The position numbers and the translations under genes were made by a program. Positions 2,175-21,634 of a DNA stretch of 23,002 nt are shown one piece after another. The notes below the pieces were generated by a model. It had not been told where the DNA came from. It saw only the letters and a list, made by a program, of their open reading frames with translations, and made no database searches. This DNA comes from a virus (lineage: Duplodnaviria; Heunggongvirae; Uroviricota; Caudoviricetes): IMG/VR virus record IMGVR_UViG_2740892209_000015. The stretch is one strand, 5' to 3'. The stretch's first letter is position 1. Each line of letters begins with the position of its first letter.

Positions 2175-2524
2175 TGGAGCCATACAGCCTCACACTCGAT
2201 GAGGCCTGTCATTTTCTCAAGATATCCAGACCGACTGCCATTAACTGGATACGCACAGGGCGTCTTCAGGCAACACGCAAAGATCCCACTAAGAATAAAT
2301 CTCCTTACCTCACAACACGACAAGCCTGCATTGCGGCTCTTCAGTCTCCGCTGCATACTGTCCAGGTGAGCGCGGGTGATGGCATAACAGAGGAAAGAAA
2401 ATGTCACTCTTCCGCAGAGGTGAAATATGGTACGCCAGTTTCACATTGCCGAACGGTAAAAGATTTAAACAGTCTCTTGGAACAAAGGACAAAAGGCAGG
2501 CGACAGAACTCCATGACAAGCTAA
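2174..2524 (+). CDS. xis: Excisionase, P22 Xis-like (116 aa)
   Basis: [40 protein letters not shown]... resembles P22-type excisionase. GAGGTGA RBS. 3' end overlaps the int start, as in P22. Confidence 0.8.
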
Positions 2525-3564
2525 AGGCTGAAGCATGGCGGGTCAGCAAACTTGGTGAAATACCTGATATAACGTTCGAGGAAGCGTGTGTCAGGTGGCT
2601 TGAAGAGAAAGCACATAAAAAATCACTGGACGATGACAAAAGCCGGATCGGATTCTGGCTTCAACATTTCGCAGGAATGCAACTAAGAGACATTACTGAA
2701 TCAAAAATTTATTCAGCAATGCAGAAAATGACGAACCGGCGTCATGAGGAAAACTGGAAACTCAGGGCAGAAGCATGCAGAAAAAAAGGGAAACCTGTTC
2801 CAGAATACACGCCAAAACCGGCGTCCGTTGCAACGAAGGCTACGCATCTTTCATTTATAAAGGCCCTACTAAGAGCCGCAGAGCGTGAATGGAAAATGCT
2901 GGATAAGGCACCAATTATTAAAGTGCCTCAACCAAAGAATAAACGGATCCGCTGGCTGGAGCCCCATGAAGCACAAAGGCTGATTGATGAATGTCCGGAG
3001 CCATTAAAGTCTGTTGTTGAATTTGCACTGGCAACAGGCTTAAGACGCTCGAACATCATCAACCTTGAATGGCAACAAATAGATATGCAGCGCCGGGTGG
3101 CATGGATAAACCCGGAAGAGAGTAAATCAAACCGCGCAATTGGCGTTGCGCTGAATGATACTGCATGTCGCGTATTGAAAAAACAAATCGGGAATCATCA
3201 CCGTTGGGTATTTGTGTACAAGGAAAGCTGTACCAAACCAGACGGAACGAAAGCGCCAACAGTAAGGAAGATGCGGTATGACGCAAACACAGCCTGGAAA
3301 GCGGCGCTGAGACGGGCTGGTATTGATGATTTCAGATTTCACGACTTGAGACACACCTGGGCAAGTTGGCTGGTTCAAGCCGGAGTCCCGTTGTCAGTGT
3401 TACAGGAAATGGGAGGCTGGGAGTCTATCGAAATGGTTCGTCGATATGCTCACCTTGCACCTAATCACCTTACCGAACACGCACGGCAAATAGACTCGAT
3501 CCTGAACCCATCGGTCCCAAATTTGTCCCAGTCAAAAAATAAGGAAGGTACTAATGATGTGTAA
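2401..3564 (+). CDS. int: Tyrosine integrase, P22 / DLP12 IntD-like lambdoid family (387 aa)
   Basis: N-terminus [21 protein letters not shown]... and C-terminal catalytic HxxR ([10 protein letters not shown]) and Tyr (VRRYAHL) motifs. Reads toward a thrW-like att core immediately downstream. Confidence 0.9.
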
Positions 3565-3578
3565 CTTATTGATTTAAA

Positions 3579-3597
3579 TGGTGCGATAATAGGAACA
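3579..3597. repeat. Degenerate direct repeat of the thrW 3' end (att core, junction between the two elements)
   Basis: AATGGTGCGATAATAGGA here versus AATGGTGCCGATAATAGGA at 21557-21575 (one indel). Lies 15 nt after the int stop. Confidence 0.7.
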
Positions 3598-3656
3598 ATA
3601 CACATAGGCGATAAGCTTTGTTTTTGTTGCCTTTTTTATTGTTCATTTTTTATAGA

Positions 3657-3681
3657 TACCCCCAAAAGTACCCCCATATCT
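3657..3681. repeat. TACCCCCA-type direct repeat, candidate integrase arm-type site (copy 1)
   Basis: ATACCCCCAAAAGTACCCCCAT; near-identical copy at 21425-21450 in the same orientation, each just inside one island boundary. Confidence 0.5.
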
Positions 3682-3795
3682 TTTTCCGCCCCTGAAATTT
3701 GGTTGTTATTCATACAGCATATCAGGCGGTAACGCTCTCCCTTTAACCCACTTATTGTATGATAGTGCTATCCCACAATAAGGAATCAGCCAGCC

Positions 3796-4155
3796 ATGAG
3801 AATGACCAGCCGTAAAAAAGAGATACTCAGTTATTTTGAGCCGGATAACCTAGAATGGGTGACAGGTGAGATTGGTGCGCCGCCGTTCGATGTGTCGGGC
3901 GTGGCCTACCTGCTTCATGGCATGGTGTCGTTCGATAAGCGCCACCAGCTCGAATCAACCCGGCGCACACTGGAAAGCATGGTTGCTGGTGGACTGCTTG
4001 AGCGGGTGACAGTGTATGAATCGCGTCAGGTACGGCGCGGCGGTGAGACTAACGCAACGGTCGTGCGCTACGGTTTACCCGGTCACTGCGCTGTTATGCG
4101 CGATACTGGCGGCGCTGATAACGCAATATCAGGCGAATACATGCGGGTCAGTTAA
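3796..4155 (+). CDS. Hypothetical protein (119 aa)
   Basis: ORF with AAGGAA upstream of the ATG. Convergent 8-nt overlap with the downstream minus-strand gene. No family recognised. Confidence 0.45.
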   Translation: MRMTSRKKEILSYFEPDNLEWVTGEIGAPPFDVSGVAYLLHGMVSFDKRHQLESTRRTLESMVAGGLLERVTVYESRQVRRGGETNATVVRYGLPGHCAVMRDTGGADNAISGEYMRVS

Positions 4156-4690
4156 GAGCCTGCAATCTGTCGTTAATGTTGTTCAGGTCGTAAACCCGGC
4201 GTTCAATATCCAGCATCAGGAAATCGTGGATCTCGGCCTGTTCAGGATTATCAGACTCTCTGGCCTGTAAGAGCAATTCATTGTAACCATGCAAACCACC
4301 CGAATTTTCCGCCGGGGTAGTGCCCTTCCCGCGCAAACAGCTAACAGGCTGGATACTGGTATCATGTGTTTGCTTCTCCAGCACAACAAGGCAATCCCAC
4401 CAGTCGCCAAAGTCATACGTGTAAACCAGCTTGTCACCCTCATTCTGGAGCGCCGCCCATAGTGGCGTGATTGCCGCGTTACCCATGCTTTCATCCTCAC
4501 CCCATACGCGATACTCGCTACCTGGATCACCTTTACGCCCTTTCTCGAACATATACAGGTGTTCGTCATTCCAGCCAAAAGCTAACTGGATCACGGCATG
4601 AAGTTTACTAAAGGGGATTTGCTCTGGAACCAGCACACGCCGCCATATTGGTGGTTTGCTGTCTCGGATGGTTATCTTTATCTGGTACAT
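4148..4690 (-). CDS. PRiA4b ORF-3-like family protein (180 aa)
   Basis: N-terminal signature IKITIRDSKPPIWRRVLVP...LHAVIQLAFGWNDEHLYMF matches the pRiA4b ORF-3-like domain as I recall it. Confidence 0.65.
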   Translation of the reverse strand: MYQIKITIRDSKPPIWRRVLVPEQIPFSKLHAVIQLAFGWNDEHLYMFEKGRKGDPGSEYRVWGEDESMGNAAITPLWAALQNEGDKLVYTYDFGDWWDCLVVLEKQTHDTSIQPVSCLRGKGTTPAENSGGLHGYNELLLQARESDNPEQAEIHDFLMLDIERRVYDLNNINDRLQALN

Positions 4691-4733
4691 GCGTCGTGAA
4701 CCAATAGTGTACGTTTAGGTGGGTATTTTTCTG

Positions 4734-5168
4734 CTACTGACCAGGATAGAGCTGATGTGCCGGGTCAAGCCAGACAATATGGAATACATTACCGATGAAA
4801 AATCCATGTATGCGACCATATTCATTGCGCGATATGGCAAATTGATAAGGTGTATAACTCTGAAACTGTTCATTCAAATGCTGAAATCCCTTAGGTTCAG
4901 ATGTAGTTTGCCAATCAATCGGATGTGACTTCAACGAACCACCGCGATCGGTGGTGAACTCTCGTTCAGTCATAGTGGAAAGGTCTTTGAGGCGGTCTAA
5001 CACCTTGCAAAAATAAACAGGATTCTGAGCGCTGAAAGTAAATTTCTCATGCGCCGCATCGATATACCGAAAAGAAAAGTTGATGGTCGTTATGCCTGAA
5101 CCTGTTCCCCCAGGCACTATTTTTGTTTGCGAGGGTGCAATCTTCGACGCCCTGATTCTTTTCGCCAT
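4734..5168 (-). CDS. Hypothetical protein (144 aa), candidate toxin partner of the upstream Panacea-domain protein
   Basis: Start codon 2 nt after the stop of the upstream gene (tight coupling). No family recognised. Confidence 0.55.
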   Translation of the reverse strand: MAKRIRASKIAPSQTKIVPGGTGSGITTINFSFRYIDAAHEKFTFSAQNPVYFCKVLDRLKDLSTMTEREFTTDRGGSLKSHPIDWQTTSEPKGFQHLNEQFQSYTPYQFAISRNEYGRIHGFFIGNVFHIVWLDPAHQLYPGQ

Positions 5169-5170
5169 AT

Positions 5171-5626
5171 TTAGGAAGCCATCGAACGATAAAACTCAGC
5201 CGTTACACTTTTATCAATAACATTCTTGCACGGCGCATCTGATGGAACCCCTTCACGGGCCTCCAGCCACGGCTTTTCTTGGTGCGTCATCTGCTCCAGC
5301 TCATAAGCTGTATAACCGCCAAATACCTCATAGATTTCCTTTAGATGCTTTGACACATTCGCAGGTAACTCAGGGCAGGCAATCTCTTCGTCTATTGAGC
5401 GCCATTTGTAATCTGCAAATCTGGTATACAAATCTCTGGCTACAGGGCCATGTACCCATGCTTCAAACTTGTCAGCAACCAGTTCTTCGCCATCATTCAG
5501 CGCCATGAACCAAGCATCAGCATAGAACACCATTTTTTGCAGTTTCAGCGGGGTCATAACATCCCCATGCTCTTGAGCAAAGCAAAGCAGGTAATCCGCT
5601 ACGCTGTTAAGGGTTGTAACTGCCAT
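5171..5626 (-). CDS. Panacea-domain (DUF4065, SocA-like) protein, putative antitoxin (151 aa from the internal start)
   Basis: KLQKMVFYADAWFMALN...FEAWVHGPV...LYTRF matches the Panacea/DUF4065 signature. AGGAG RBS 7-8 nt before the ATG at 5626; the longer ORF starting at 5857 has no RBS. Confidence 0.65.
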   Translation of the reverse strand: MAVTTLNSVADYLLCFAQEHGDVMTPLKLQKMVFYADAWFMALNDGEELVADKFEAWVHGPVARDLYTRFADYKWRSIDEEIACPELPANVSKHLKEIYEVFGGYTAYELEQMTHQEKPWLEAREGVPSDAPCKNVIDKSVTAEFYRSMAS

Positions 5627-5947
5627 TATCCAATCTCCTGCCGTATGTTTTCGTCTATAACTGTCCACTACCGTTAATAATCGCATATAACCACGGGTAT
5701 TGCCCATCGTAAAATGCCATTTAAAGATTCTGCGTGATGGCTCACCATCCACCGCGCAAGATACCCGGTGCGTTTGGCTGATAATCCGCAATTTGGTTGA
5801 AACCGTCCTGGAAACCTCAAGTTTGGAAACCAGCGACTTGCATCGTAGCTTTGCCATTCGGCGGTCATAGTTACTGCTATATCCCTTTATTGGCGAGACC
5901 TGCGAGAGGTTTTGTTGTTCGAATATATAAAGGTGAATAAAGGTAAT

Positions 5948-8711: not shown

Positions 8712-10817
8712 TTATTGAGCTTCCTTTTGCGATGCTTGTGCTGCTGTGGTCAGTGATTGTGTGACCGTACTGATCGCTCTGTCATATGCTGTGCTACCTT
8801 TTGGCGTATTTGCCAGACGTAACAAGGCATTTCGTATAACAGGGCTTTCGTATGCCTTCGCTGCTCCGCCTACGACACCAGCAGCAGGAACAACAAACGC
8901 AGCCGTTTTTAGCATCCCCGCTAATACTGCTGCGTTTATGATGCCACCACCAACTAACAATCCATAAAGCTGCTGACCATTTAAGTTTTGAACGTTCGCT
9001 TTTGCCGCGTGTCTTGTATCGTTGAGGTATTTAATAACGCCGTCCAGTTCCTTTCCATGTATGCCTTTAAAGAAAGTTGCTGATTGCTTCCTGTTCCGGT
9101 GTAACGCATTAATAAACTTCTCAACACTGATATTTCCAGACGGATCAGTCGCCTTATCTACAGCATTCTGAACTATGGCTGCTCGTGCGTTTTGCCTACC
9201 ATTGTCATCCAGAAGCCTGTAAAGCTGAGAACGTTCTGATGGGCTTTGGCTAAAAACAAGTTTTGTTACATCCTCAGGCGTGGCCTTGCCGCTGGCTATT
9301 GCCTTTTGAACGCGCGTTCTTCCCATCATGTCATTGAATTTAGACCATGAGCGATCAACCCTTGCCATATTAATAGCTTCGTCTGCTCCAAGATTTTTGG
9401 CTACGGCTTTTTTCATATCCGCCGTATATGCCTTGTAGATAATATCGCTGGCTTTCTGGAGCGTATCTTTATCAACAGTGTCAGATGACGCCATAAATCG
9501 CTTTCGAAGATCGGTTCTGTTTTCCCTCGCCAGACGCAGGTCATTTGGTCCGCTGGTGATATCGTCTTTAAATTGCTGCAAGACTTTTACCGCGGCTCTA
9601 TCCTGAGATTTGCCCGGGCGGCTTAACACGGCAATCTGATTGTCGATAGCTTTTACCGTGTTTGAGAGATCGACAGGGGTATCCCCCATAGCGTCAATTA
9701 TGCGGTTATATCGCTTTCCTGCTGCCTCAATGAATTTTTGTTGCCCTTTAGTCGCAGATTCATAAAGCTGTTTATCAGAAATGCCACCCAGACCATCGCT
9801 AAATGTTCTGACTAAATTTTCTCGTGCTTGTTGTTGATTCAGCCGATTCTTACCGGTTCCAAAAAAAGGAACTCTTTCGCCTAATGTCTGAGCCTGACTC
9901 TGCATAAAGGTTTTATCTTTCAGCATGTCACTGGTCATTAACGGCAGATTTCTTTCCGATGCAAAGTCGACAGCAGCCTTTGCTTCAGGCGACATATCAC
10001 CACGAACAGCCCTCGAAACCGCACTCGCTGTATTTTCCAGCCCCTTACCAATACCACCAATGCCAGCAGAAATTACCGTTTGTAACGGATCAATATCTTC
10101 TCCACCAGCGAGGCTGGTGGCTCCCTGTAGTGCTAAATCTGTAGCTGCTGATTTCCCTATGGCCCCCAGCACCGTTCCGGCCCTGCCCGCTGGTGTAAAC
10201 GCCAGCGCATTAGCCAGAAACGATGCCACGTCTTGCGGCGATAAACCCGGCTTGTTCAGAGCATAATCACCGGATGGCAGGGAAACGATAGTGTTACCCT
10301 TCTCATCCTGCCTTAATTTCGCTCCCATGCTCTGAAGAATCTTTTCCTGAGATGCGTCAGAGCCGAAAAGTTGAGACCATCGAGCTTTTAGAGCATCCAT
10401 GCTGAGTGAGGTTAACTCTGGGGCAAGGTCGACATTTTGCAGTCTCTCCATCTCTGGAGTCATTCGGCTTTCGCCTGTTATAGCATCGCGCATCGCAGCC
10501 CCAAGACTGGCTCCCTGTTCTGCTGAACGCTCAAGCCCCTCTCTTTGCTGAGTAGCTAACTTTGCATACCCTGACGCAATAGAATTATCAGATGATGTAT
10601 GTTGAATATTTTGAGTTGCTGATTGGGATCGGTCTATTTCATTCGTTGATGGTAGTGGATAGGCAGCATAAAAAGCCTGCTTAGCCTGCTCTACACTTTC
10701 TCCGGCTTGCGGGGCAACGACTTCATTGAAGTATTGCTCCTGAGCCTGCGCTTTTTGTTCTGGTGCTAACGCCTGATACTGTGGAGAGGCGATAACATCT
10801 TTCCATGCTTTAGCCAT
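8712..10817 (-). CDS. Large uncharacterised protein (701 aa); A/Q/K-rich, predicted helical, C-terminal hydrophobic hairpin
   Basis: Long ORF with GGGGTGA RBS, start overlapping the upstream stop (TAATG). Two adjacent hydrophobic stretches near the C-terminus (LYGLLVGGGIINAAVLAGML / AAFVVPAAGVVGGAA). No domain recognised. Confidence 0.8.
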   Translation of the reverse strand: MAKAWKDVIASPQYQALAPEQKAQAQEQYFNEVVAPQAGESVEQAKQAFYAAYPLPSTNEIDRSQSATQNIQHTSSDNSIASGYAKLATQQREGLERSAEQGASLGAAMRDAITGESRMTPEMERLQNVDLAPELTSLSMDALKARWSQLFGSDASQEKILQSMGAKLRQDEKGNTIVSLPSGDYALNKPGLSPQDVASFLANALAFTPAGRAGTVLGAIGKSAATDLALQGATSLAGGEDIDPLQTVISAGIGGIGKGLENTASAVSRAVRGDMSPEAKAAVDFASERNLPLMTSDMLKDKTFMQSQAQTLGERVPFFGTGKNRLNQQQARENLVRTFSDGLGGISDKQLYESATKGQQKFIEAAGKRYNRIIDAMGDTPVDLSNTVKAIDNQIAVLSRPGKSQDRAAVKVLQQFKDDITSGPNDLRLARENRTDLRKRFMASSDTVDKDTLQKASDIIYKAYTADMKKAVAKNLGADEAINMARVDRSWSKFNDMMGRTRVQKAIASGKATPEDVTKLVFSQSPSERSQLYRLLDDNGRQNARAAIVQNAVDKATDPSGNISVEKFINALHRNRKQSATFFKGIHGKELDGVIKYLNDTRHAAKANVQNLNGQQLYGLLVGGGIINAAVLAGMLKTAAFVVPAAGVVGGAAKAYESPVIRNALLRLANTPKGSTAYDRAISTVTQSLTTAAQASQKEAQ

Positions 10818-12283
10818 TAATCACCCCATAGTGAAGAAAAGTTACTGCTGGCTGCTGGCTGTGATACCTGCTCAGATTGCGGCAATGTCTGCGACGAAGA
10901 AGAAGTTCCTCTGTCAACTGCTGAAATAACCCGCAAAGCATCATAAGTTCGACCAGAAGCAGCTTTCAGCGAATTGAACTGGTTTTCCATCTTCCGGCGC
11001 TTGGTATCAATGGTTTTTGTGGAGTCGCCAGGCTGAGGGAAATACATTTGATAATATTTTGACATTTCAGCAGGTGCGATAGCTGCCCCTGTTTCCTGAC
11101 GGAGTATTGCCATTATTGCGTCATTAGCATTAACAACGTATTGCTGCTCTGCTGGGCTGAGCGTTAAGTTAGCCAGCGTCCCATTACCCAAAGCATTATT
11201 AATGATCGCCACTCGCTGTGGGCTAAGCTGGTCTTTCAGTGTATCTATTGAATCAAGAGCATCCCTAACCCTGTATGCAAATCCAGCAGCTTTTTTAGCC
11301 CCTTCTGGCGACTTTTCCATGATCTTTTGGGCTGTTGGCAAAGCTATTGGACGAAACCCATCTCCAGATATTGGCTGGTTTAGTTTTCCCTGCTCTTCAC
11401 TTCCGTCTGTGTAGTATTTTGTGACAGTGCCATCATCGTTTTCTCTAACACTCATTAATTTTTTGGTGTTTGTATTAATTCCAGCCGCTGCCGCAAATGC
11501 CGCCGCCCCCTCTGGATCAGCCTTTAACATTTGCGCGTACTGATTGTAATTCTGCATTGCTGCTGTTGGTGCATATGCTGACGTTAACGCATTTGCTCGG
11601 CTAATATCCTGCCCTCTCGCCTGAAGTGCTTCACCAGCTTTATTGCTGCGAATCGTCTCTGCCAACTCGCCACGCTCAATATCCCGACCCTCCATTCGAT
11701 CTTTGATATCGAAGTACTTCTCATGACCGAGAGAAAACAGCGCCAGATTACCTGCGAAATGCTGGAAGCCCTGCGGGTCATTAACCTGCATTTCAGCAAT
11801 AGTTTCTGGAGGGATACCTAAACGACGCATCTCCTGCTCATTATCCATCATGAACCTGCCAAATGCGCCCGGACCAAGCGATGAGGCTACCTGTGCTTTA
11901 AGCGCCAGATTGCCATAATCATCCCTTTGAGCATCATCGACATAACTCATCCCTTTACGGACTTCCTCAAACTCTTCGGGGAATGCTGTAATAAGATTAC
12001 GCATCTGCTCCCTGTCGCCGGACGCATAAGCATCTGCATAACCTTTCTGGAATGCCGCTTTACGCTCCTGCTGTTGCTGCTGCTTATAAATGTCAGCAAC
12101 TCCAGCCAGACCACGAAGGCCTGTCAGAGCAACGTTATTTGCACCTGATCGAGCCAGTTCATTGTTTTCGCGGATCAGACCAAGCGTTGCGTTAATGTCG
12201 CTTGCCTTTGGCGCATTCTCGTTTTGCGCACCAATGCCAGCCAGAAAACCACCAGAATTAATACCCTGTTGCCACGTAGCCAT
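10817..12283 (-). CDS. Large uncharacterised protein (~488 aa); poly-Q stretch, A/G/Q-rich
   Basis: Long ORF. ATG at 12283 is 4 nt after the stop of the 57-aa ORF; the track's GTG at 12295 is the alternative start. No domain recognised. Confidence 0.75.
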   Translation of the reverse strand: MATWQQGINSGGFLAGIGAQNENAPKASDINATLGLIRENNELARSGANNVALTGLRGLAGVADIYKQQQQQERKAAFQKGYADAYASGDREQMRNLITAFPEEFEEVRKGMSYVDDAQRDDYGNLALKAQVASSLGPGAFGRFMMDNEQEMRRLGIPPETIAEMQVNDPQGFQHFAGNLALFSLGHEKYFDIKDRMEGRDIERGELAETIRSNKAGEALQARGQDISRANALTSAYAPTAAMQNYNQYAQMLKADPEGAAAFAAAAGINTNTKKLMSVRENDDGTVTKYYTDGSEEQGKLNQPISGDGFRPIALPTAQKIMEKSPEGAKKAAGFAYRVRDALDSIDTLKDQLSPQRVAIINNALGNGTLANLTLSPAEQQYVVNANDAIMAILRQETGAAIAPAEMSKYYQMYFPQPGDSTKTIDTKRRKMENQFNSLKAASGRTYDALRVISAVDRGTSSSSQTLPQSEQVSQPAASSNFSSLWGD

Positions 12284-12287
12284 AAAT

Positions 12288-12461
12288 TTACCCACGTCCA
12301 GTTAAAGTGTAAGCCAGCGCCTTATCCATTAATCCCCGAGCAATTTCGTGGATCGTTGGCGCAACTCCTACCTCTGATTTTTTACGCTGCTCCTCCTGAA
12401 TTTTCTTTATCGCTTCCATTTGCTTCTCACTTATCAATACCGGCTTTACTGAAATAGCCAT
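12288..12461 (-). CDS. Small protein (57 aa), possible RHH-like DNA-binding protein; first gene of the operon
   Basis: Below the ORF-track size cutoff; found manually. AAGGGGG RBS 5 nt upstream of the ATG. Sequence MAISVKPVLISEKQMEAIKKIQEEQRKKSEVGVAPTIHEIARGLMDKALAYTLTGRG. Confidence 0.5.
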   Translation of the reverse strand: MAISVKPVLISEKQMEAIKKIQEEQRKKSEVGVAPTIHEIARGLMDKALAYTLTGRG

Positions 12462-17479: not shown

Positions 17480-17641
17480 GTGGCAGCCTCCTTGATTGAT
17501 GGTTTATAGCCACCGCCCAAGAGACCAATCTTGCTGGCGGTGGACTGTACGGAGTTGGCCTTACTGGCAATCAAGGAAACCAGCCTACCCGAAGGTAGCC
17601 CCATACAGCCCACCATTGATAAGGTGTGCGTGTGCGCCGAT

Positions 17642-17664
17642 ACAAAAAAAGACGCTGGCGCGTC
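17642..17664 (-). terminator. Candidate intrinsic terminator (minus strand) inside the long track ORF
   Basis: On the minus strand: hairpin GACGC-GCCA-GCGTC followed by a U7 run. Confidence 0.45.
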
Positions 17665-18102
17665 ATGTATCGCCTCGATTGTCAGCGGGAGGCCAATCCC
17701 GGCACCCGTTTTATGAGGTGCCTTATAACCATAAACCGTGTTGCCGCATAACGGCAAGCTCTTTTTTATGGACTCCGAAAACTCAGTATTGGAAGCACCA
17801 GATGCACAGTACATCGCGCTCATTTCGTTAACGTCACGCACGTGGACGAATGTTTTTGTGGAGTCACTACACGAGCGGAAGACATCATCTACGACCAGAA
17901 ATTTTCTGGCGCAGCCGCTGACCTTCTCAATGCTAATATCATCGCCCGAGATTTCTGGTATGGTTAAGGCATCCGTTCCGACCACCAGCAAATGATAAAC
18001 TTTGCTTGCATCTGCTGTATTAATGCCTGACTTTGCCGTCATATTGCTGGATTTTGGCGACATACCTGCCAGTGAAAATGTCTTCTTCTGGACGGTTAGC
18101 AT
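17642..18102 (-). CDS. Hypothetical protein, N-terminal ~150 codons of the long track ORF; 3' end unresolved
   Basis: ATG at 18102 with GGAGG RBS, 3 nt after the stop of the upstream gene. The first ~150 aa look protein-like, then composition degenerates. No in-frame stop before 17074. Confidence 0.35.
17741..17767 (+). terminator. Candidate intrinsic terminator (plus strand), implying a short antisense transcript
   Basis: Hairpin TTGCCG-CATAA-CGGCAA followed by GCTC and a T6 run on the plus strand. Confidence 0.4.
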
Positions 18103-21393: not shown

Positions 21394-21424
21394 TTGGGGG
21401 TACCTCCACTAAACCGAACAGCAA

Positions 21425-21450
21425 ATACCCCCATAAGTACCCCCATCTGA
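21425..21450. repeat. TACCCCCA-type direct repeat, candidate integrase arm-type site (copy 2)
   Basis: AATACCCCCATAAGTACCCCCAT, matching 3657-3681. GACTTTAGTAGAC also occurs twice nearby (21470-21482 and 21526-21538). Confidence 0.5.
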
Positions 21451-21558
21451 CCGTAGATTTTGAGGGACTTTAGTAGACGTCAAAAGACGAACGGGGCTTT
21501 AATACGCGGATTATAAGGGGTTTTGAAAGACTTTAGTAGACTTGGGGAGATGTTTGAA

Positions 21559-21634
21559 TGGTGCCGATAATAGGAGTCGAACCTACGACCTTCGCATTAC
21601 GAATGCGCTGCTCTACCAACTGAGCTATATCGGC
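21559..21634 (-). tRNA. thrW: tRNA-Thr (anticodon CGU)
   Basis: Reverse complement reads GCCGATATAGCTCAGTTGGTAGAGCAGCGCATTCGTAATGCGAAGGTCGTAGGTTCGACTCCTATTATCGGCACCA, 76 nt, with CGT in the anticodon loop and 3' CCA. Confidence 0.93.

Follow-up and report, generated by a model that had tools for sequence, protein, structure and literature searches.

A Panacea gene and its close partner in an Escherichia coli satellite-like island: a candidate PanAT toxin-antitoxin module with a predicted RelE-like fold

What kind of system is formed by two small, tightly spaced genes near one end of an integrated phage-related element in Escherichia coli? The element lies in IMG/VR virus record IMGVR_UViG_2740892209_000015 (Caudoviricetes); the window analyzed here is a stretch of 23,002 nucleotides from that record, and the pair, panA and panT, occupies positions 4,734 to 5,626. 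A sequence-only reading had taken PanA for a Panacea (DUF4065) protein and its partner for a candidate novel toxin. We find that the two genes are a strictly conserved unit across several phyla, and that PanT has a predicted RelE-type core with an enzyme-like set of conserved residues. The pair is probably a type II PanAT toxin-antitoxin (TA) module with a RelE-like RNase as its toxin, which belongs with partners already predicted for Panacea proteins.

A two-gene unit conserved across phyla

PanA matched the Pfam profile PF13274 (SocA_Panacea) over residues 29-120 with 65.8 bits against a cut-off of 25.7 (E = 8.4e-18), and phrog_1281 with E = 8.5e-36. The Panacea assignment thus passed a profile search. 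The HGPV motif is present, in AWVHGPVARD; across 30 PanA sequences of the subfamily, G60 and P61 never vary and V62 is kept in at least 90%. This GPV motif matters for neutralization by Panacea antitoxins (Kurata et al. 2022, PMC8832971). PanA is a standalone protein with no extra N-terminal domain. It is very improbable that it acts as a SocA-like proteolytic adaptor of a type VI system, handing PanT to ClpXP. SocA has the same Panacea domain and PanA partially matches the NCBIfam SocA equivalog NF047745 (E = 4e-16), but its score is 59.2 bits against a cut-off of 190, and PanT is unrelated to SocB.

Homologues of PanT numbered 209 in a word-index search and 1,277 cluster representatives at 50% identity in an exhaustive search, both at E ≤ 1e-3. 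Gene neighborhoods were compared at 84 loci from Enterobacterales, other Gammaproteobacteria, many cyanobacteria, Chlamydiae, Chloroflexia and Bacteroidota. A Panacea gene was found immediately upstream, on the same strand, for every partner gene having upstream DNA (83/83); two loci had no upstream Panacea gene, and both were cut at a contig edge. Spacing was tight throughout, with a 2-nt gap in Enterobacterales and an overlap of ~20 nt in most cyanobacteria. Because the flanking genes are unrelated between phyla, and the PRiA4_ORF3 gene that follows panT in the window recurs only once, the conserved unit is exactly two genes. The pairing is not due to chance. Kurata et al. (2022) defined PanAT pairs by a partner within 100 nt, presence in at least two species and the absence of a longer conserved operon; panA and panT are separated by 2 nt, occur together in several phyla and have unconserved flanks.

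The pair also behaves as a unit within E. coli. Alignment with strain 98195 revealed the same flanks and ~115 bp of unrelated DNA replacing window positions 4693-5945, with borders at the PRiA4_ORF3 start codon and at the stop codon of a 61-residue open reading frame (ORF). Of 5,426 complete E. coli genomes, 23 carried the full region, at 99.9% identity. The cassette is a discrete, self-contained presence/absence unit. Strict conservation across phyla and this self-contained 1.25-kb cassette support the core of the sequence-only reading, namely a coupled, TA-like pair. Its coordinates for both reading frames and their 2-nt spacing were also confirmed, but on the minus strand.

Since panT has no evident Shine-Dalgarno sequence of its own in the sequence as read, translational coupling across the 2-nt junction is suggested. 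A longer, 228-residue reading of the panA frame, from an ATG at 5857, is also in the ORF list. Some panA relatives have a stop-to-stop frame of only ~160 codons, so the 151-residue product is the conserved form. The panA leader contains two short direct repeats, TGGAAACC and ATAAAGGT, each present twice. A scan with the sigma-70 consensus gave no strong promoter match on the minus strand, and no promoter or terminator defining an operon was found; the promoter presumably lies in the leader. An Rfam scan returned nothing within the cassette. In RefSeq, PanA is labelled 'Panacea domain-containing protein' and PanT 'hypothetical protein'.

Annotation of the PanT family is uneven. Many database entries are C-terminal fragments of 61 or 89 residues, with one 61-residue form found on 93 contigs. 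The idea that such short Salmonella and Klebsiella homologues are inactivated toxins was rejected for the single case checked: in Salmonella enterica (DABKDE010000005.1, L088:2833-3270), an intact 145-residue frame starts 2 nt past the Panacea stop codon and the annotated start is wrong. Another short homologue is a contig-edge fragment. Miscalled starts create an apparent gap of 170 nt, which neighborhood-based TA searches would reject. As a separate observation, an uncultured Chloroflexia metagenome-assembled genome (MAG; CAVSHN010000008.1, L082:2522-3432 and 3575-4556) carries two complete PanA-PanT pairs in tandem; both are counted among the 83.

Predicted fold and relatives of PanT

An AlphaFold2 model of PanT, built with 56 homologues, reached a predicted local distance difference test score of 84 and a predicted template modelling score of 0.74. 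Its topology is β1 (30-32), α1 (50-63), α2 (68-73), a 33-residue insert, β2 (107-111), β3 (119-125) and β4 (128-135). The modelled core (a β-strand, two helices and a three-stranded antiparallel sheet) can be superposed on solved RelE-type toxins, and HigB, RelE and YoeB ranked first in Foldseek, with weak E-values. PanT is therefore predicted to have the fold of the RelE/ParE superfamily, also termed BECR (Barnase/EndoU/Colicin/RelE). W133, D135 and H138 do not vary across 136 representatives, in which H82, R119, R59, Q109 and Y52 are each conserved in at least 90%; Y141 is invariant among 56 closer homologues. The pattern is enzyme-like. In the predicted model the placement of H82, R119, D135, H138 and Y141 in the secondary structure is consistent with catalysis, and the order and placement of H82, R119 and H138 suggest that these three may cluster in space.

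It is improbable that PanT is catalytically inert or non-nuclease, whether as a ParE-like gyrase poison or as a non-cleaving RNA- or ribosome-binding factor. Both structure searches placed the RNase-type toxins RelE, HigB, YoeB and YafQ above ParE. A ParE-like poison would not be expected to have near-invariant His, Arg, His and Asp residues, and PanT resembles the H-R-H BECR RNase domain of NsnC, considered below.

Several features set PanT apart from RelE, HigB, YoeB and YafQ. It is ~50 residues longer and has a Lys/Arg-rich, disordered N-terminal tail of ~28 residues. The insert (74-106) carries the conserved H82, along with W86, T89 and F95, which do not vary among the 56 closer homologues. 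PanT is paired with a Panacea antitoxin and not with RelB, HigA, YefM or DinJ. Comparisons at the sequence level were largely silent: phmmer and the family profile returned only noise and nothing relevant from PDB sequences, and hhalign comparisons with individual YafQ, YoeB, RelE and HigB sequences yielded no significant match. A local hhalign match between 'LKSHPI' of PanT and 'YKLHPL' of HigB is suggestive, as a lead and not as evidence.

Two families of unknown function matched the C-terminal core. PanT scored 30.3 bits against NCBIfam NF046006 (MAG6450_fam), below the cut-off of 40, and all 136 relatives gave sub-threshold matches; PHROG 8366 was matched significantly (E ≤ 0.01) by 136 of 136. 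Published work mentions MAG6450 solely as a conserved hypothetical protein of Mycoplasma agalactiae. On these scores PanT is a distant relative of the MAG6450 family and not a member. PanT has no match in Pfam, but the earlier statement that the partner has no recognizable family gives way to the RelE-like predicted fold and the uniform match to PHROG 8366.

Kurata et al. (2022; PMC8832971, PNAS) predicted 1,268 PanA-partner pairs in 88 clusters. In the part of that study covered here, clusters T14, T28, T48 and T59 have RelE/ParE-like partners, and the largest, T1, comprises 'hypothetical proteins' labelled 'mRNase' in Table S1 and includes Mollicutes members. One T1 protein, orf161 of Salmonella phage Emek (YP_006560566.1), directly follows a Panacea gene and is the archetype of PHROG 8366 (phrog_8366, E = 9e-66). 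The PanT family profile aligned to it with an hhalign probability of 96.9% (E = 1.4e-10, 111 columns), and the PanT family and orf161 have the motifs FSFxY, RLxxLS and (I/V)WLDxxxxLY in common. A tblastn search of 50,697 phage records with PanT gave no match; phage relatives appear only with profile methods.

The locus is also PanAT-like in its layout, with a standalone Panacea gene first, a small toxin gene within a few nucleotides, a cross-phylum distribution and a location on mobile elements. These similarities suggest that PanT is a member of, or a sister group to, the PanT superfamily already predicted. The proposal of a novel toxin was accordingly dropped: pairing of Panacea with RelE-like toxins has been described in silico, PanT is a remote homologue of a cluster T1 member, and it represents a Pfam-less, uncharacterized subfamily rather than a new fold or kind of toxin. 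WP_032283080 and WP_001371753 were not found in the covered part of the Kurata and NetFlax supplements, nor were the accessions of four relatives in the covered part of Kurata 2022 Dataset S1. Identity of the PanT family with cluster T27 (Nostoc carneum NIES-2107, gap -29) was rejected as unlikely on the dataset portion available: the Nostoc pair overlaps by 20 nt from a GTG start, position -29 holds no start codon, and a P-loop is annotated in one T27 member.

Mode of action and possible role in defense

We favor a type II mechanism in which PanT would be an endoribonuclease of the RelE/HigB/YafQ fold. Its substrate would be RNA, most likely ribosome-bound mRNA, and cleavage would halt translation. 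The putative active site comprises H82, R119 and H138, with probable help from D135, Y141, R59 and Q109. PanA and PanT would probably be made in fixed proportion through translational coupling, and PanA would bind PanT directly and keep it inactive. The analogy is with known systems: PanAT pairs form complexes (Kurata et al. 2022, PMC8832971), and direct neutralization by a standalone Panacea protein was reported in the NetFlax study (Ernits et al. 2023). Loss or inactivation of PanA, for example upon phage infection or loss of the cassette, would then free the RNase.

Several points weigh against this mechanism. The RNase assignment derives from a predicted fold and conserved residues, and none of the 136 diverse relatives matched the RelE/ParE/HigB/YoeB/YafQ profiles (ParE_toxin, HigB-like, Gp49), even at E ≤ 10. 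Classical autoregulation is not evident, as PanA lacks a DNA-binding domain. No PADLOC defense model matches the pair as a system. In the covered part of the T1 experiments (Kurata et al. 2022), toxicity was seen for the Clostridium cadaveris member, which its own PanA did not neutralize, and neither an E. coli MOD1 prophage member nor Emek orf161 was toxic in E. coli. Toxicity of PanT should therefore not be taken for granted.

The tested T1 phage proteins have only ~23% identity to the window PanT. Four phage-borne relatives carry E, A/P, V and F at the positions of H82, R119, H121 and H138, respectively, and have RHxLG and LYKH motifs of their own. The T1 phage proteins are therefore imperfect proxies for the H-R-H subfamily. 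These residue differences could explain the lack of toxicity, a testable explanation which does not amount to a claim that the phage relatives are inactive.

Non-toxicity of two of the three T1 members covered is also what would be seen if the pair were a conditional effector in phage defense or abortive infection. PanT would then be harmless alone or when bound to PanA, and would be activated only once a trigger, for instance a phage protein, is sensed by the Panacea domain, perhaps while the two proteins stay bound. We regard this as unlikely; it overlaps the type II mechanism and does not exclude it. The place of the cassette among variable cargo close to attR of the satellite-like island fits such a role, as do a partial family match to a defense-system model and the cyanophage loci described below. 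Against it, no defense phenotype is known for the PanT family, the absence of a PADLOC model for the pair applies here too, and the behavior of the non-toxic relatives may not transfer to PanT, from which they differ at putative catalytic positions.

The model in question is that of NsnC from the Menshen system. Of the 136 PanT relatives, 49 matched the C-terminal 75 residues of the PADLOC NsnC model, with a best E of 1.4e-5; the match of the window PanT itself was marginal (E = 0.027). According to a 2025 analysis, the PB-BECR1 domain of NsnC belongs to the Barnase/EndoU/Colicin/RelE superfamily, has YafQ as its closest structure and has an H-R-H triad replacing the H-D-H of YafQ (PMC12065111). 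A YafQ-like BECR fold, predicted for PanT, and an H-R-H pattern would thus be common to both, with a similarity that is weak but recurrent. In contrast to NsnC, PanT has 144 residues and lacks the inactive-PIN N-terminal domain. The neighbors of PanT are PanA and PRiA4_ORF3, and do not include the Menshen proteins NsnA (ParB-DUF262) and NsnB (ABC ATPase). The PanA-PanT pair is not a Menshen system.

Two cyanophages encode an intact PanA beside a PanT reduced to a stub: Cylindrospermopsis raciborskii virus RM-2018a (MH636380.1, L090:1483-2118) and phage Cr-LKS4 (OQ625504.1, L095:1495-2124). Their PanAs are 65-68% identical to cyanobacterial PanAs of the PanT-linked subfamily and are flanked by arrays of clustered regularly interspaced short palindromic repeats (CRISPR). 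The remnants are an unannotated 64-residue stub in one phage and an N-terminal stub of ~20 residues in the other, with no catalytic core in either. A harmful toxin and an antitoxin that benefits the phage would be expected to leave such an intact PanA with a decayed PanT, and the loci thus offer circumstantial support; the orphan PanA could be kept as a counter-defense. We tentatively extend this to a speculative proposal, that H-R-H PanT proteins may be phage-triggered RNases carried as interchangeable defense cargo, which phages counter by capturing PanA and dropping the toxin. If true, a natural phage-encoded orphan antitoxin would be on record for a PanAT family for the first time, and TA toxins would have an evolutionary link to the Menshen effector domain.

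Host island and implications for Panacea systems

The features of the locus are listed in Table 1. The cassette is part of an E. coli chromosomal island of ~18 kb that extends from attR to tRNA-Thr (thrW, 21559-21634). Homology to other island-carrying E. coli genomes starts at 3561-3569. The island encodes an integrase, an AntA/B antirepressor, an Ash-family protein, a zinc-ribbon-Toprim-DUF927 primase, P22-type injectosome proteins and PerC, and this content, with no capsid, tail or terminase genes in the island, makes it satellite-like. The cassette sits at the island's variable end, the panT stop codon lying ~1.1 kb from attR, in agreement with the att-proximal accessory location proposed from the sequence alone.

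Table 1. Positions and strands of the panA-panT locus and the nearby attachment site, in window coordinates
Feature	Position	Strand	Description
panA	5171..5626	-	151-aa standalone Panacea (DUF4065) protein, putative antitoxin; RefSeq WP_001371753.1
panT	4734..5168	-	144-aa putative toxin, RelE/YafQ-like (BECR) predicted fold; RefSeq WP_032283080.1
Gene junction	5166..5173	-	panA TAA 5171-5173, spacer 5169-5170, panT ATG 5166-5168; read from sequence
Shine-Dalgarno AGGAG	5635..5639	-	8 nt 5' of the panA ATG; read from sequence
Cassette-specific leader	5627..5945	-	319 nt, 5' of panA; part of the segment missing in strain 98195
Whole PanAT cassette	4693..5945	-	1.25-kb indel polymorphism; alignment with E. 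coli strain 98195
attR	3577..3594	.	Degenerate 18-nt direct repeat of the thrW 3' end, AATGGTGC-GATAATAGGA; compared with 21557-21575 within tRNA-Thr

Downstream of panT, after 43 nt and on the same strand, lies the PRiA4_ORF3 gene (4148-4690, minus strand; PF07929, E = 6e-42). A 119-residue ORF of no family (3796-4155, plus strand) is convergent with it and overlaps it by 8 nt. Both are retained in E. coli strains without the PanAT cassette and therefore belong to the island backbone. A three-gene operon including PRiA4_ORF3 was rejected, since that gene accompanies the pair at just one further locus and lies outside the cassette indel. In an Atlantibacter sp. MAG (L006:2030-4406), the 61-residue ORF, PRiA4_ORF3 (E = 6e-126) and the 119-residue ORF strongly match those of the window. 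The PanT between these conserved flanks is only 69% identical to the window PanT, which suggests cassette replacement or fast divergence in this slot.

Other observations concern the island as a whole. Two large P22-type injectosome genes at 8712-12295 (minus strand; PF16928 Inj_translocase, E = 2e-84) are named 'injection protein' and 'phage DNA ejection protein' in RefSeq. A related island in strain PF9285 has a different set, including a lytic transglycosylase. A second tyrosine integrase gene (2401-3564, plus strand) ends 13 nt before attR. Because DNA to its left is absent from other island-carrying genomes, a further element seems to have inserted itself in tandem at the attR repeat. The motif A(A/G)(A/G)TACCCCCAT occurs near both island ends (3660-3680 and 21423-21446), as ACCCCCAAAAGTACCCCCAT near attR and as AAATACCCCCAT and AAGTACCCCCAT near the integrase end; these copies may be arm-type integrase binding sites. 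Rfam identified a C4 antisense RNA (79 bits; 17533-17620, minus strand) and an isrK Hfq-binding RNA (65 bits; 17645-17721, minus strand). Both overlap a 342-residue Ash-family reading frame, ~0.5 kb downstream of the AntA/AntB antirepressor gene, in an arrangement that resembles the P1/P7-type immI (c4-ant) immunity module.

The PanA-PanT pair leaves the understanding of Panacea systems unchanged. Its family is widespread, with ~1,300 clusters at 50% identity, and cyanobacteria carry it especially often; members are often missed or have miscalled starts, and are thus probably under-counted in TA and defense censuses. The RelE-like ('mRNase') PanAT branch holds the largest predicted PanT cluster, and prior tests of it, in the portion of the published work covered, were mixed or negative. 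If confirmed, the pair would provide an experimentally tractable E. coli example for this branch, and the contrast at H82, R119 and H138 with the non-toxic phage relatives offers a direct, testable explanation of those results.
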